DNA of 41,339 nt, taken from positions 1 through 41,339 of IMG/VR virus record IMGVR_UViG_3300045988_044838; one strand, given 5' to 3'. The translations under genes were made by a program, and so were the position numbers. Source of the stretch: a virus. Below the pieces are notes generated by a model. The model worked only from the letters and a program-made list of their open reading frames with translations. It was not told the DNA's origin and made no database searches. Positions 5,364-39,867 of this stretch are shown here, one piece after another (the first letter of the stretch is position 1; each line of letters begins with the position of its first letter).

Positions 5364-5462
5364 CTTAAAACACGTCCTTATATAAAAGATCAGAAGGCCG
5401 CAAGGAGGGCGGCGACGTGTACCAGCCCTTGTCCCTTACGTCCTCCTGATGATATTTTTGCA

Positions 5463-36566: not shown

Positions 36567-37150
36567 TCCTCACACCACCAAATGTCTGCCGTCTGGACGC
36601 CCAGGGATAAGGCAAAATCGTGGGTAGGGACTGCAATATCAATATGGTCCCCCTTGACTGCCGGACCGGTATCATCGGCTCTCAGATAAACCATCTCGCC
36701 GTTGTACTCGATCATGATGGTGCTGCCCAGCGGTATAATATCAGGGTCCACGGCGCAGCTCACATACGGAGTCACGCGCCGTCCGCTGGCGGTGATGCCT
36801 GTCCCAGTCCCGCAGATGTGAGGCCGTTCCTCGCAACAATAAAAGGTGATGGTGGCACCTTCCAGCTTGTGAGACCGGGCCAGCAAAGCAGCTTCTATAA
36901 GCTCATTCTCGTTTTCCTCGATCTCTTCTTCTGTCAGATAACAGCGAGTGGTGGCCGGAGTATCGTCGCCGGGGAGACTTCCGTCCTCTTTGGCTGCCTC
37001 CGGCTCGTGCATGGCCAGCCGCTCCGCCTCCACGGTCATAATCAGGTAGCTTCCCAGCCACGCCAGCAACAAGATCAGAAACAGGAGATATGTAATCAGC
37101 TGCCGCCTCTGGCTCCAGCGCCGCCGCTCTTCCCGTGTCAGTTTCTTCAC
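36563..37150 (-). CDS. Membrane-anchored 3D-domain protein (MltA/RlpA-like DPBB cell-wall-binding or lytic fold)
   Basis: It has a transmembrane helix LITYLLFLILLLAWLGSYLI. AVDPDIIPLGSTIMIEY...ADDTGPAVKGDHIDIAV carries the three-Asp (3D) signature. The GTG at 37150 after GGAGGGAG is preferred over the ATG at 37189. Confidence 0.7.
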   Translation of the reverse strand: MKKLTREERRRWSQRRQLITYLLFLILLLAWLGSYLIMTVEAERLAMHEPEAAKEDGSLPGDDTPATTRCYLTEEEIEENENELIEAALLARSHKLEGATITFYCCEERPHICGTGTGITASGRRVTPYVSCAVDPDIIPLGSTIMIEYNGEMVYLRADDTGPAVKGDHIDIAVPTHDFALSLGVQTADIWWCEE

Positions 37151-37247
37151 CGCTCTCCCTCCATCCAGGAAAGGAAGCGCATGAACCATCCGGCAACCTT
37201 GACTGTTCCGATGATGGTGATTACCACCCCTATACCCATTTCAAAGC

Positions 37248-37460
37248 TCATGCGCTCACCGTTCTTTCCGCGATCCAGCGATCCAGCAAAGCCTTATAGA
37301 TATAACACCATTTGACTTTCTTGCCGTCCTCGGCCATTACGCAGTCCCCGAACGGGAAGACTTTCTTTTGGATGCCATCCCGGATAGTCTCCGGAGTAAT
37401 ACGCAGCCCCGCATTGCGAAGGACTTCTGTTGCTTCGGCTGCCGTCAATGCTTCAATCAT
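37248..37460 (-). CDS. Small HTH protein (excisionase/MerR-like)
   Basis: The ATG at 37460 follows AAGGAGG. The 70-aa product contains LTAAEATEVLRNAGLRITPETIRDGI. Confidence 0.6.
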   Translation of the reverse strand: MIEALTAAEATEVLRNAGLRITPETIRDGIQKKVFPFGDCVMAEDGKKVKWCYIYKALLDRWIAERTVSA

Positions 37461-37471
37461 AAAAAACCTCC

Positions 37472-37500
37472 TTGATTTCTCCCTCTGGAGGCGATATACT
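37472..37500 (+). promoter_or_regulatory. Sigma-70-type promoter for antisense sRNA A
   Basis: TTGATT - 17 nt - TATACT. Confidence 0.55.
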
Positions 37501-37506
37501 GTATCC

Positions 37507-37576
37507 AAAGGGATTGTTCGTGGTTGCTCAATCCTTGCCCGTCTGACTGCCGGTAACGGTCAGGCGGGATTTTTTA
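37507..37576 (+). ncRNA. Candidate antisense small RNA A (~70 nt)
   Basis: It starts downstream of the promoter at 37472-37500. It has two hairpins: GGGATTG/CAATCCT, and the terminator CCCGTCTGAC/GTCAGGCGGG followed by ATTTTTT. The G-U pairs form only in plus sense. Confidence 0.5.
37538..37576 (+). terminator. Plus-strand intrinsic terminator (sRNA A)
   Basis: A 10-bp stem with one G-U, followed by ATTTTTT. In minus sense it has a C-A mismatch and no U-tail. Confidence 0.6.
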
Positions 37577-37837
37577 CACATCTTCCGGGTACGCAACGGA
37601 AACCAGCTCTTTCAGTTCCATCAAGTCGATGCCGGGATCATGTGCCGCCCGGTCCAGAATCAGCTCCTTCAACTTGGGGCCAGCGCCTTCCAGTGCCTTG
37701 CGGTAATCTTCAAATGTGTAATCCATGTGGGCCTCCTCCCATGTGCGGCCCTTCCAGGCGAGACAGAGATTGTCCATAAGACGATTGGTGTTCCTTGCCT
37801 GCCTTTCAAGGGCTTGAATGCTGTCTTTTTCGTTCAT
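37574..37837 (-). CDS. Hypothetical early protein
   Basis: ATG follows AAGGAGG. 87 aa. Confidence 0.65.
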   Translation of the reverse strand: MNEKDSIQALERQARNTNRLMDNLCLAWKGRTWEEAHMDYTFEDYRKALEGAGPKLKELILDRAAHDPGIDLMELKELVSVAYPEDV

Positions 37838-37847
37838 AAAAACCTCC

Positions 37848-37876
37848 TTGTCATTTGACCCGGAGGCGTGTATAAT
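37848..37876 (+). promoter_or_regulatory. Sigma-70-type promoter for antisense sRNA B
   Basis: TTGTCA - 17 nt - TATAAT. Confidence 0.65.
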
Positions 37877-37882
37877 AACCTC

Positions 37883-37966
37883 GCGGGCCTGTTGGCACTA
37901 TCAATAGGTCTCCGCAGCCCTCGTCAGTGTTTCCGGCACTGGCGGGGGCGTTTCTTATTTGCTTTT
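37883..37966 (+). ncRNA. Candidate antisense small RNA B (~80 nt)
   Basis: It has hairpin CCTGTTG/CAATAGG and a 13-bp terminator stem at 37917-37929/37937-37949 with two G-U pairs, followed by TTTCTTATTTGCTTTT. It overlaps the stop codon of the Cro-like gene in antisense. Confidence 0.55.
37917..37966 (+). terminator. Plus-strand intrinsic terminator (sRNA B)
   Basis: A 13-bp stem that is perfect only in plus sense (two G-U pairs become A-C in minus sense), followed by a U-rich tail. Confidence 0.65.
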
Positions 37967-38140
37967 CAGGCGTTCTAAAGCCTCGTTTAGCTTCTGCTCT
38001 GCGCCCTTCGGCTCTTTGTGGCCGTTAAGCACGACACTGAGATACTTTGGGTTCCAGCCGACCTCCGCTGCGAGTTGCTTGGCCGTTACTCCGGCCAAAT
38101 GCATCTCACCCAGCAGATCAGCAGTCCACTTTGCTGGCAT
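37955..38140 (-). CDS. Cro-like small HTH protein (first clear early gene)
   Basis: The ATG at 38140 follows AGAAGGAGGAA. The 61-aa product contains VTAKQLAAEVGWNPKYLSVVLNG. Confidence 0.7.
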   Translation of the reverse strand: MPAKWTADLLGEMHLAGVTAKQLAAEVGWNPKYLSVVLNGHKEPKGAEQKLNEALERLKSK

Positions 38141-38156
38141 ATGATTCCTCCTTCTG

Positions 38157-38185
38157 TTGATTACTATGGTTAATTCTGGTACAAT
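38157..38185 (+). promoter_or_regulatory. Strong sigma-70-type promoter with extended -10
   Basis: TTGATT - 17 nt - TACAAT, preceded by TGG. It is followed by GAGGTGA and the GTG at 38205. Confidence 0.6.
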
Positions 38186-38204
38186 CACCGTTGAGGTGAT
38201 ATTT

Positions 38205-38570
38205 GTGCTTGATAATCGTTCTTATAAATTGCTGAAAAGGTTTTACCGAAAGAAAAAGTTGAAGTTTGAACAGATACAGAAAATCACGGAGCATGATGAA
38301 AGCAAAAAACCAAGTAAATACATATCCTCTTTGACTACAAGCCATTTCATCACATATTGGAACACGGATGAAATCATAAACGATGTCGGAGACACGAAGC
38401 AGGAAGGGTACTGTATTACGCTGGATGGAGAAGCCTATGTAGAGCAGCGCAGACGAGATAGAAAAATGTTCTGGGTTCCATACCTTATTACCACCGCTAT
38501 TGCACTACTAAGCCTCATTACTTCTCTGGCAGAGCATTGGGAAACGATCAGCAATCTTTTCTGCGGCTAA
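38205..38570 (+). CDS. AT-rich gene for a C-terminally membrane-anchored protein (prophage-expressed accessory candidate)
   Basis: The GTG at 38205 follows GAGGTGA. The C-terminal helix is FWVPYLITTAIALLSLITSLA. The upstream part of track ORF 38157.. is occupied by the promoter. Confidence 0.6.
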   Translation: MLDNRSYKLLKRFYRKKKLKFEQIQKITEHDESKKPSKYISSLTTSHFITYWNTDEIINDVGDTKQEGYCITLDGEAYVEQRRRDRKMFWVPYLITTAIALLSLITSLAEHWETISNLFCG

Positions 38571-38873: not shown

Positions 38874-38900
38874 AATACAAAAGTTGTCTTTTTACTGCAA
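38872..38900 (-). promoter_or_regulatory. Candidate leftward (early) promoter
   Basis: In minus sense it reads TTGCAG - 17 nt - TATTCT, back-to-back with the repressor promoter. Confidence 0.3.
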
Positions 38901-38905
38901 AAGCG

Positions 38906-38934
38906 TTGACTTAGGTTATCTTTCGTGATACTAT
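38906..38934 (+). promoter_or_regulatory. Candidate repressor promoter
   Basis: TTGACT - 17 nt - TACTAT with an upstream TG (extended -10). Confidence 0.5.
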
Positions 38935-39004
38935 GTGTTTGCCGACAAATAGAACAGAAAGATGACTTAAGTTGCTCCATGAACTTATTATACGATAACC
39001 ATGG

Positions 39005-39021
39005 TTGCCTGTCAATGGCAA
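39005..39021. promoter_or_regulatory. Operator-like palindrome TTGC-N9-GCAA
   Basis: TTGCCTGTCAATGGCAA lies in the repressor leader. Confidence 0.3.
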
Positions 39022-39074
39022 AAAGCAACTTCAGTGGCTTTCTATGTTTTATACAAACTAGGAGGTTGCTTTTC

Positions 39075-39443
39075 GTGTTTTTTGATAGGTTTGAAAGTTT
39101 GTGCAAGCAAAAGGGTGTTTCTAAACAAAAGGCTTGTATAGACTGTGGGCTGAGCCGTACCGCTTGGAACAAATGGAAAGCGGGAGCCATCCCTAACGGA
39201 GATGCAATACAATCTCTTGCCGATTATTTTGGCGTCACTACTGATTACCTCTTGACCGGCGAAGAAACAAAAAAAGCGCCCACCTCGGAAGGTGAGCGTG
39301 AAGTTACTGACCGTCAAATCAAAGCTGCATTTTTCCATGGCGCTGATATGACTGACGAAGAGATGGACGCCGCCTGGGAAGATGTTATGGATTTAAGGGA
39401 TATTGTTATAAGAAAAAGAAAGCGTGATGCAGGTGGTAAATAG
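39075..39443 (+). CDS. XRE-family repressor (ImmR/CI-like)
   Basis: The GTG at 39075 follows AGGAGG. The HTH is KQKACIDCGLSRTAWNKWKAGAIPNGDAIQSLADYFGVTTDYLL. It is followed by an ImmA-like gene. Confidence 0.85.
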   Translation: MFFDRFESLCKQKGVSKQKACIDCGLSRTAWNKWKAGAIPNGDAIQSLADYFGVTTDYLLTGEETKKAPTSEGEREVTDRQIKAAFFHGADMTDEEMDAAWEDVMDLRDIVIRKRKRDAGGK

Positions 39444-39867
39444 CCCGCTGCAACTCTATCAAGAAGCTAACGATGCTGGAATTGATATAATTTGGATGCC
39501 TCTGCGGATAGATCAGTCTTTAGCGACCCAGTTTGATGATGGCTCCTTCGCTATTGGAATTGATCCCTGGAAGATGGATACTATTGCAAAGGAAATTGTT
39601 TGCTTGGGACATGAACTAGGGCACTGCAATACAGGGAGTTTTTATAACCGCTGGGCAACTTGCGATATTCGGAAGAAACACGAAAACCGTGCCGACAAGT
39701 GGGCAATTGAACGCCTTGTTCCGCTGGAAGATTTTGACCAGGCAATAGCTGATGGATATGATAACATTCCGGACCTAGCGGATTATTTCAATGTAACAGA
39801 AGATTTTATGCGGAAAGCAGTGTGCTTCTATATACACGGGAATCTAGCAGCTGAGTTATATTTTTAG
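39427..39867 (+). CDS. ImmA/IrrE-family zinc metallopeptidase (anti-repressor protease)
   Basis: It has the HEXXH motif (GHELGHC) and a typical length. It overlaps the repressor stop. Confidence 0.85.
   Translation: MQVVNSPLQLYQEANDAGIDIIWMPLRIDQSLATQFDDGSFAIGIDPWKMDTIAKEIVCLGHELGHCNTGSFYNRWATCDIRKKHENRADKWAIERLVPLEDFDQAIADGYDNIPDLADYFNVTEDFMRKAVCFYIHGNLAAELYF

Follow-up and report, generated by a model that had tools for sequence, protein, structure and literature searches.

Why would a phage early operon carry, in two successive gaps between its genes, a promoter that points against the operon and is followed almost at once by a terminator-like hairpin? The question is raised by a viral sequence of 41,339 nucleotides (nt; IMG/VR record IMGVR_UViG_3300045988_044838), the whole of which we refer to as the window. 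The window is a prophage or phage genome whose minus strand carries almost all genes from ~2 kb to 38.1 kb. The order of the early genes is Cro-like helix-turn-helix (HTH) gene, open reading frame 87 (ORF87), ORF71, a 34-aa hydrophobic ORF, a 3D-domain protein, and recombination and replication genes. The two elements, which we call cassettes B and A, occupy the plus strand of the untranslated gaps behind the Cro-like gene (gap B, 37838-37954) and behind ORF87 (gap A, 37461-37573). An earlier note on this DNA had read them as duplicated units resembling the lambda OOP antisense RNA. Sequence comparison supports cassettes A and B well as genuine plus-strand transcription units, with predicted RNAs of ~68 and ~76 nt. 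What the earlier note missed is the sense-strand half of the locus, namely a hairpin between an anti-Shine-Dalgarno (anti-SD) segment and the Shine-Dalgarno (SD) sequence, together with a competing helix in the early mRNA. We consider it probable, if well short of assured, that each gap is a two-strand module and that the two cis-antisense RNAs drive the leader into an SD-closed form.

Antisense units in the gaps and their conservation

On its plus strand, each gap contains a sigma-70-type promoter, a hairpin that begins at the predicted transcript start, and a GC-rich hairpin with a T-run. A consensus scan recovered both promoters exactly as they had been reported, and the hairpin and U-run claimed to follow each of them were located as well:

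37472-37500, plus strand: promoter A, with -35 TTGATT (37472-37477), a 17-nt spacer and -10 TATACT (37495-37500); 9/12 consensus matches
37507-37575, plus strand: predicted antisense RNA A, ~68 nt, with its 5' hairpin at 37509-37536
37538-37568, plus strand: terminator-like hairpin of RNA A, 12 bp, then ATTTTTT (T-run 37570-37575)
37848-37876, plus strand: promoter B, with -35 TTGTCA (37848-37853), a 17-nt spacer and -10 TATAAT (37871-37876); 11/12 consensus matches
37883-37960, plus strand: predicted antisense RNA B, ~76 nt, with its 5' hairpin at 37883-37915
37917-37949, plus strand: terminator-like hairpin of RNA B, 15 bp, then the tail GTTTCTTATTT (37950-37960)

Folding confirmed the proposed 5' hairpin in each RNA. 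The predicted RNA A (37507-37576) folded with -31.3 kcal/mol (z = -4.8) and the predicted RNA B (37883-37960) with -43.7 kcal/mol (z = -7.3); in both, the 5' hairpin and the terminator hairpin are one nucleotide apart. The T-run of RNA A spans the stop codon of ORF87 (37574-37576), and the tail of RNA B spans that of the Cro-like gene (TTA, 37955-37957), into which the RNA had indeed been said to run. The predicted +1 positions (37507 and 37883) lie 36-37 nt past the SD complement, with the SD beside the -35 element and outside the transcript. The contact between the two that had been described was also found, as the SD complement CCTCC abuts or overlaps the -35 element in both cassettes. Moreover, the cassettes have in common a 17-mer, TCATAAAAA(A)CCTCCTTG, at the ribosome-binding site (RBS) and -35 element. 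This 17-mer is the part of the claimed duplication that stands; beyond it, the cassettes belong to two different sequence families (71% identity in a forced alignment) and are not duplicates. No sense-strand promoter was seen in the minus strand of either gap, by eye or by consensus scan. The covariance models of Rfam 15 returned nothing beyond noise from 37200-38300, even at E <= 10, and nothing in the cassette region of the window or in six related loci reached a gathering score.

Could two such units have arisen by chance? We scanned both strands of the 41 kb for promoters with a hairpin and T-run 35-100 nt behind them and obtained exactly two sites, cassettes A and B. Markov-resampled windows held a mean of 0.30 sites, with two or more in 5.3% of trials. 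By itself, the window is therefore of borderline significance, suggestive rather than conclusive, and we judge the cassettes real because they are conserved in relatives. The resampling figure speaks for chance motifs, and the presence of a 34-aa hydrophobic ORF nearby (37147-37251) speaks for antitoxin RNAs of a type I toxin-antitoxin pair, yet we find either reading hardly credible. Chance is excluded by the conservation, covariation and purifying selection over > 100 contigs that are described below. As for a toxin-antitoxin pair, the RNAs overlap no small hydrophobic ORF, the 34-aa ORF is not adjacent to them, and the 87 aa of ORF87 are modelled as a soluble, helical protein. For want of any repeat structure or partner gene, readings as anti-CRISPR repeat mimics, retron RNA or type III antitoxin repeats were dropped as well.

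Viral contigs were scanned with the Cro-like protein and ORF87, which yielded 55 loci, and distant ORF87 homologs added more. Every ORF87-family gene examined is preceded by a gap with one common layout, read on the strand opposite the gene: the start-codon complement, an A/T-rich run, CCTCC, TTGNNN-17 nt-TAnnnT, 6 nt, a hairpin, and a GC hairpin with a T-run. The cassettes fall into three main sequence families (A, B and C) plus several others. All family B and C cassettes examined stand directly upstream of an ORF87-family gene, and the family A cassettes of relatives precede at least two unrelated genes. Across 56 related loci, 68 promoter-plus-terminator units were antisense to the early operon and 13 were in the sense orientation. 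Among viral contigs, 93 contain a 22-mer of the family C leader and 46 contain hairpin 1 of family B.

In these relatives the promoter hexamers and their 17-nt spacing are retained while the flanking sequence turns over. Among the variants seen, the -35 element reads TTGTCA, TTGCCA, TTGATT, TTGATA, TTGTTT, TTGCGT or TTGTGG, with the 17-nt spacing kept, and the -10 element TATAAT, TATACT, TACTAT, TAAAAT or TATAGT. Family A (13 distinct sequences) keeps the hexamers at a spacing of 16-18 nt and includes the variants TTGCTT and TTGTCC-17-TATAGT. The nine distinct leaders found on family B hairpin 1 all keep TTGNNN-17-TAnnnT, except for one with a weak -35. Hairpin 1 always starts 7-8 nt past the -10 element.

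The strand on which the RNA functions can be read from the stems. Gap A folded with -40.6 kcal/mol on the plus strand and -35.3 kcal/mol on the minus strand, and gap B with -54.8 and -43.6 kcal/mol, respectively, because G-U pairs in the stems turn into A.C mismatches on the other strand. On average the cassette strand gained 10.5 kcal/mol of stability over its reverse complement, and it was the more stable of the two in 41 of 44 distinct RNAs. G-U pairs numbered 81/346 on the cassette strand vs 0/276 on the other strand in family B, 30/236 vs 0/200 in family C, and 48/278 vs 16/247 in family A. Many of them are invariant across relatives, and the T-run is always 3' of the hairpin on the cassette strand. 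In the family B alignment (A5), 95.5% of the cells were paired, five pairs had changes on both sides, and the covariation score was reached by 0/500 shuffles. At one stem pair of family C, 24 sequences have A-U, 15 have G-C and one has a mismatch. The structure of RNA A is likewise retained in relatives. The earlier argument that G-U pairs available only in the plus sense fix the strand is borne out in both gaps, with a bias to the cassette strand in all three families. The proposed comparison with related phages also came out in favour of antisense countertranscript units, at the level of predicted RNAs: hexamers are conserved in diverged relatives, stems change in a compensatory manner, and the G-U bias is that of the plus strand.

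These data also bear on the proposal that only the sense strand matters, so that the gaps would encode structured leaders (RNase III sites as in the T7 early region, 5' stabilisers, or antitermination similar to HK022 put) and the plus-strand motifs would be by-products. The leader does contain conserved, competing helices in the mRNA sense, two hairpins one nucleotide apart recall the put RNA, and gaps of the type found in Flavonifractor phage Chenonceau carry GC hairpins without a promoter. Nevertheless, we regard this proposal as very improbable. Each hairpin holds 4-8 plus-strand G-U pairs that would be A.C mismatches in the mRNA, where the T-run 3' of the hairpin would become a functionless A-run before it. 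Consensus hexamers at exactly 17 nt persist across nine leader sequences, and hairpin 1 begins at the predicted +1. Unlike in put, the functional two-hairpin RNA is favoured on the strand opposite the operon, as judged by the G-U bias and the fold energies (10.5 kcal/mol, 41/44).

Selection was compared through pairwise differences per site among 16 family B loci:

Stems: 0.000 differences per site
46 nt over the RBS, promoter and start site: 0.005 differences per site
Fourfold-degenerate sites of ORF87: 0.062 differences per site
Hairpin-1 loop: 0.543 differences per site

From these values we infer strong purifying selection on the promoter and stems, and a rate of change in the loops above that of neutral sites. 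In the wider sets, family B has 15 distinct hairpin-1 loops and family C at least 17, and these have reassorted with different terminator loops. Such loops could suggest that the cassettes act mainly in trans, as immunity or exclusion RNAs against the early mRNAs of superinfecting phages with the same loops, control of their own operon being secondary. The divergence of the loops, ~9x faster than that of synonymous sites on invariant stems, fits this view, as do their number and reassortment and the precedents of P1/P7 c4 and BTP1 STnc6030. On the other hand, loops are the least constrained part of a hairpin, local recombination could mimic diversifying selection, and the cis target is always present, and we therefore judge a mainly trans-acting role to be decidedly unlikely.

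A candidate switch in the early-mRNA leader

The intercistronic leader of the early mRNA and the antisense RNA are perfect complements. Each antisense promoter has GGAGG in its spacer; in the early mRNA this becomes CCUCC, which is able to base-pair with the SD of the following gene (helix H34). The other partner of this anti-SD segment is the 3' half of the hairpin-1 complement with the few bases next to it (helix H23), which leaves the -10 complement in the loop. Approximately half of the 5' arm of H23 is the complement of antisense RNA nucleotides +1 to +7. As the antisense RNA begins past the -10 element, the early mRNA alone has both H23 arms. The elements of the two leaders, all on the minus strand and given by the plus-strand positions that they complement, are:

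37467-37512, minus strand: ORF71 leader switch, with the SD GGAGG as the complement of 37467-37471
37487-37491, minus strand: anti-SD CCUCC of the ORF71 leader, within the promoter A spacer
37504-37512 with 37481-37489, minus strand: H23 of the ORF71 leader; U6 lies between SD and AUG (37461-37466)
37842-37889, minus strand: ORF87 leader switch, with the SD as the complement of 37843-37847
37862-37866, minus strand: anti-SD of the ORF87 leader, within the promoter B spacer; inner helix 37850-37853/37856-37859
37878-37889 with 37857-37867, minus strand: H23 of the ORF87 leader; U5 lies between SD and AUG (37838-37842)

The minimum-energy fold of the ORF71 leader mRNA contains H23, with -17.3 kcal/mol against -6.6 +/- 2.5 kcal/mol in shuffles (p = 0.001). 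In the ORF87 leader the SD hairpin is present in the fold, and H23 reaches -20.3 kcal/mol (p = 0.004-0.008 vs shuffles). Over five representatives (A, B, two C variants and an unrelated cassette from locus L055), H23 ranged from -17 to -23 kcal/mol with p = 0.001-0.009, and it also beat shuffles in five more diverged variants. H23 holds in 9/9 leaders on family B hairpin 1, where its arms co-vary (for example GAGGU:GCCUC, AGGAA:UUCCU and GCAGGAG:CUCCUGC), and in family A it is 96.6% paired across 13 variants. A palindromic DNA operator around the -10 element, considered in place of H23, was rejected, as the arms differ between A and B and co-vary in relatives with wobble pairs.

Folding of partial transcripts and masking experiments in silico indicated how the two helices might alternate. 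Nascent mRNA ending just before the SD folds into H23; at full length, the B and C leaders rearrange to H34 together with the hairpin-1 complement. When the antisense target was masked in the ORF71 leader of the window, the probability of an unpaired SD fell from 0.41 to 0.06. In the family A leaders the SD-open probability went from 0.4-0.6 to 0.01-0.19 in all variants but one. The only genes of the window with a convincing start and a pure T-run as SD-AUG spacer are the two cassette genes (ORF71 read directly).

The mechanism that we propose would work as follows. In nascent mRNA, H23 would form and the SD of the next gene would stay free; otherwise the anti-SD would pair with the SD as H34, which in the window, together with U5-U6, resembles a terminator. 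Owing to the G-U pairs, the hairpins would be strong in the antisense RNA, and the corresponding A.C mismatches would weaken them in the mRNA; this asymmetry should let H23 prevail in nascent mRNA. Once bound to the leader, the antisense RNA would take away one arm of H23 and force H34, blocking translation of ORF87 (by RNA B) and of ORF71 (by RNA A). These two genes are presumed to be the regulated ones because their RBSs abut promoters B and A, respectively. The U-run after H34 in the window means that a transcription stop may add to the block. Shared operators able to regulate the antisense promoters were looked for and none was found, and the promoters are hence probably constitutive. A lysogen would then produce both RNAs continuously, and two serial gates after the Cro-like gene would render leaky early transcripts unproductive. 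The burst of early transcription on induction would titrate the RNAs and interfere with the convergent promoters. The hypervariable loops would be the likely first-contact (kissing) sites that set specificity. A role in enforcing lysogeny or in the timing of early expression, as had been suggested earlier, is plausible.

Several observations weigh against this mechanism or parts of it. Promoter A matches the consensus at 9/12 positions, and the U-tract of terminator B is interrupted. In families B and C, the SD is predicted to be closed at equilibrium with or without the antisense RNA, so that any effect there must be kinetic and co-transcriptional. H23 of family A varies by wobble-compatible changes only, and its covariation is not significant (138/500 shuffles), support for H23 coming instead from independent families; the strand asymmetry of H23 is mild. 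Read on the plus strand, the A-tract might instead serve the antisense promoter as an UP element. Window cassettes A and B and family C have U5-U6 behind H34; several other relatives lack this run and have GGAGGAAA (L063, L068) or GGAGGAAAUC (L026) in its place. Termination at the SD hairpin was accordingly rejected as the conserved output, the U-run not being universal; judging from the sequences, the conserved output is probably translational, by SD sequestration. Finally, in Chenonceau-type phages GC hairpins with T-runs adjoin the RBSs of early genes without a promoter. Such antisense-strand hairpins are found at L001:2343-2378 and L001:2908-2930 and, downstream of the Cro-like gene, in L005 and L012-L023; they are followed by a TGTCC-N8-GGACA palindrome, and one is homologous to the RNA B terminator. 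The hairpins may therefore have a role independent of a small RNA.

It is also conceivable that the small RNAs are real and that simpler routes, either interference between convergent promoters or RNase III cleavage of a ~70-bp duplex, uncouple the Cro-like gene from the genes downstream, the alternative helices of the leader being incidental or serving another signal. The antisense promoters face incoming early transcription 13-22 nt from the next start codon, and full complementarity over ~70 nt makes an ideal RNase III substrate. Lambda OOP acts through this enzyme (PMC12197685), and the closed SD of families B and C, regardless of antisense RNA, would also agree with a simple antisense effect. 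What neither interference nor cleavage would need is H23, which is kept through co-varying arms in all leader variants, or the anti-SD, which is kept at variable distances from the -10 element. We thus regard these routes as unlikely, though not lightly dismissed, to be the explanation; they are compatible with the leader switch, and it is the switch that we prefer.

Relation to known antisense systems

Literature searches turned up no description of a module of this kind. By analogy, its layout most closely resembles that of P22 sar, and its logic comes closest to that of the countertranscript attenuators of pT181, pIP501 and pCF10. The sar RNA of P22 (immI, arc-ant) is ~69 nt long, is made from a promoter within the operon, runs in reverse across the intercistronic region and represses the downstream gene post-transcriptionally. 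The cassette RNAs are similarly ~70 nt, lie in an intercistronic gap and are opposite in orientation to the operon. However, sar covers the ant RBS, whereas here the RBS lies under the antisense promoter; repression would thus be indirect, via the anti-SD switch, because the RBS is not in the antisense RNA. The cassettes also differ from sar in having no sequence relationship to it, a Gram-positive-type host, two serial gates and several module families.

Attenuation driven by a countertranscript is known from pT181, pIP501, pAMbeta1, pCF10 (Anti-Q) and RnaG/icsA. As in the pT181/pIP501 type, in which the antisense RNA is made constitutively, a small stem-loop RNA is complementary to the mRNA leader. 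In silico, a pre-emptor (H23) is set against a closing hairpin (H34) just before the target gene; the antisense target includes one pre-emptor arm, and loops would serve as recognition sites. The modules described here differ in belonging to a phage early operon rather than to replication or conjugation control, and in a closing hairpin that contains the SD and has a U-run only in some variants.

Lambda OOP is a 77-nt antisense RNA of the early right operon of a temperate phage, has its own promoter and terminator, and affects the lysis-lysogeny balance. It overlaps the 3' coding end of cII. Its action is through decay by RNase III (PMC12197685). The likeness to OOP drawn earlier holds for the predicted antisense RNAs of ~70-80 nt within the early operon and for their own promoters and intrinsic terminators, but there is no 3' coding overlap: the RNAs here reach the stop codons of the upstream genes only, precede the regulated gene and have a leader switch. 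In P1 and P7, c4 RNA is processed from the same transcript as its target, and short recognition sequences set immunity specificity. The phage antisense RNA STnc6030 of BTP1, which targets the tailspike gene, confers exclusion specificity. The short specificity sequences of both RNAs parallel the hypervariable loops of the cassettes, whose antisense promoters, unlike those of c4 and STnc6030, overlap the RBS of the target gene.

Neighbouring genes and wider meaning

The genes that flank the cassettes have the following refined coordinates, that of ORF71 being taken from the ORF list:

37955-38140, minus strand: Cro-like HTH gene, 61 aa, upstream neighbour of cassette B
37574-37837, minus strand: ORF87, 87 aa, presumed target of RNA B
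37248-37460, minus strand: ORF71, 70 aa, presumed target of RNA A

The Cro-like gene has weak Pfam matches (HTH_3/HTH_31) and a match to the PHROG transcriptional repressor family phrog_1468; its DNA is 87% identical to a 'DNA binding protein' gene of phage Chenonceau (ON453904), the closest named phage. ORF87 has no match in Pfam, PHROG or NCBIfam. Its AlphaFold model is all-helical (predicted local distance difference test, pLDDT, of 87), which suggests a soluble helical protein, and found no fold match in the PDB. A scan of genome contigs with ORF87 gave no match, and an alignment against them gave one, in an uncultured-bacterium bin. The sole family match of ORF71 is phrog_6058, of unknown function. 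We suspected ORF71 to be an excisionase, but it has no similarity to the excisionase-like protein of Chenonceau. The 34-aa ORF (MSFEMGIGVVITIIGTVKVAGWFMRFLSW..., 37147-37251, minus strand) is strongly hydrophobic and overlaps both of its neighbours, ORF71 at its end and the 3D-domain gene at its start. In contigs that carry P0062 (L058-L062), the C-terminal ~50 aa of ORF87 form a stand-alone 50-aa protein in prophage-like elements, 26 nt past an HTH_17 gene, with no gap and no cassette.

At the right end of the window, a plus-strand block holds an HTH gene and then an M78 peptidase gene, an ImmR/ImmA-like pair (38925-39867). The region adjoining this pair, 38900-39080, has a perfect TTGACA-17-TATAAT promoter (12/12) on the minus strand at 39015-38987, the direct repeats TGACTTA(G/A)GTT at 38907 and 38963, and several inverted repeats, and is the probable genetic switch. 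Between this minus-strand promoter and the Cro-like gene lies a head-on plus-strand unit (38157-38570). Its promoter, TTGATT-17-TACAAT, is preceded by a TG, and its ORF is 121-137 aa long (phrog_12206, unknown function). Chenonceau has conserved the palindrome ATCACCGTTGAGGTGAT (38184-38200), at L001:3199-3215. In the late region, 5393-5446 on the minus strand gave a full-length Rfam RAGATH-31 match of 76 bits (gathering score 71.8, E = 3e-14).

Further units were noted in the early or switch regions of related phages. Directly past the RNA B terminator and on the same strand, L027:2652-2890 carries a 59-aa ORF with an SD, a second promoter (TTGTCC-17-TAGGAT) in front of it and a terminator behind. 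The unit is also present in L026, L028, L030-L032, L036 and L038-L040 and has the appearance of a moron that entered the early operon head-on. Promoter, hairpin and terminator mini-units of unrelated sequence occur at L001:1699-1783, L010:4472-4575, L011:680-799, L016:4978-5069, L047:685-786 and L055:1249-1367; in the Chenonceau-type one, the antisense promoter encloses the SD and start codon of the adjacent gene. Chenonceau also has an apparently unannotated zinc-ribbon ORF (MFVQATISCECGC...) opposite the early operon, at L001 2437-2664 on the plus strand of the locus, with its own extended -10 promoter and SD; GenBank gives a short coding sequence on the other strand (2433-2564).

Textbook models of the lysis-lysogeny decision rest on protein repressors and a few enterobacterial antisense RNAs. 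To our knowledge, this control is almost unexplored in phages of gut Clostridia. If our reading holds, many gut phages gate their post-cro genes by an RNA device with the logic of plasmid copy control, families B and C alone accounting for > 100 viral contigs. One DNA segment would then serve as RBS, anti-SD and antisense promoter at once, two gates would act in series, and the recognition loops would evolve far faster than neutral sites. The ORF87 family, always behind such a gate, would stand out as an early protein whose expression needs to be tightly limited. A more far-reaching idea, which we put forward tentatively and with some doubt, is that the modules are mobile, fast-diversifying RNA 'locks' that sense phage dosage or a prophage and gate everything downstream of cro, with kissing loops that define RNA-based immunity groups. 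The constitutive antisense RNA would then act like a plasmid copy-control RNA, and loop changes alone would create heteroimmune phages with repressor and operator unchanged. Were the proposed device to hold, RNA-based immunity specificity, dosage sensing and switching at an induction threshold would become testable, and the modules would offer compact, orthogonal, sequence-programmable gates for engineering in Firmicutes.

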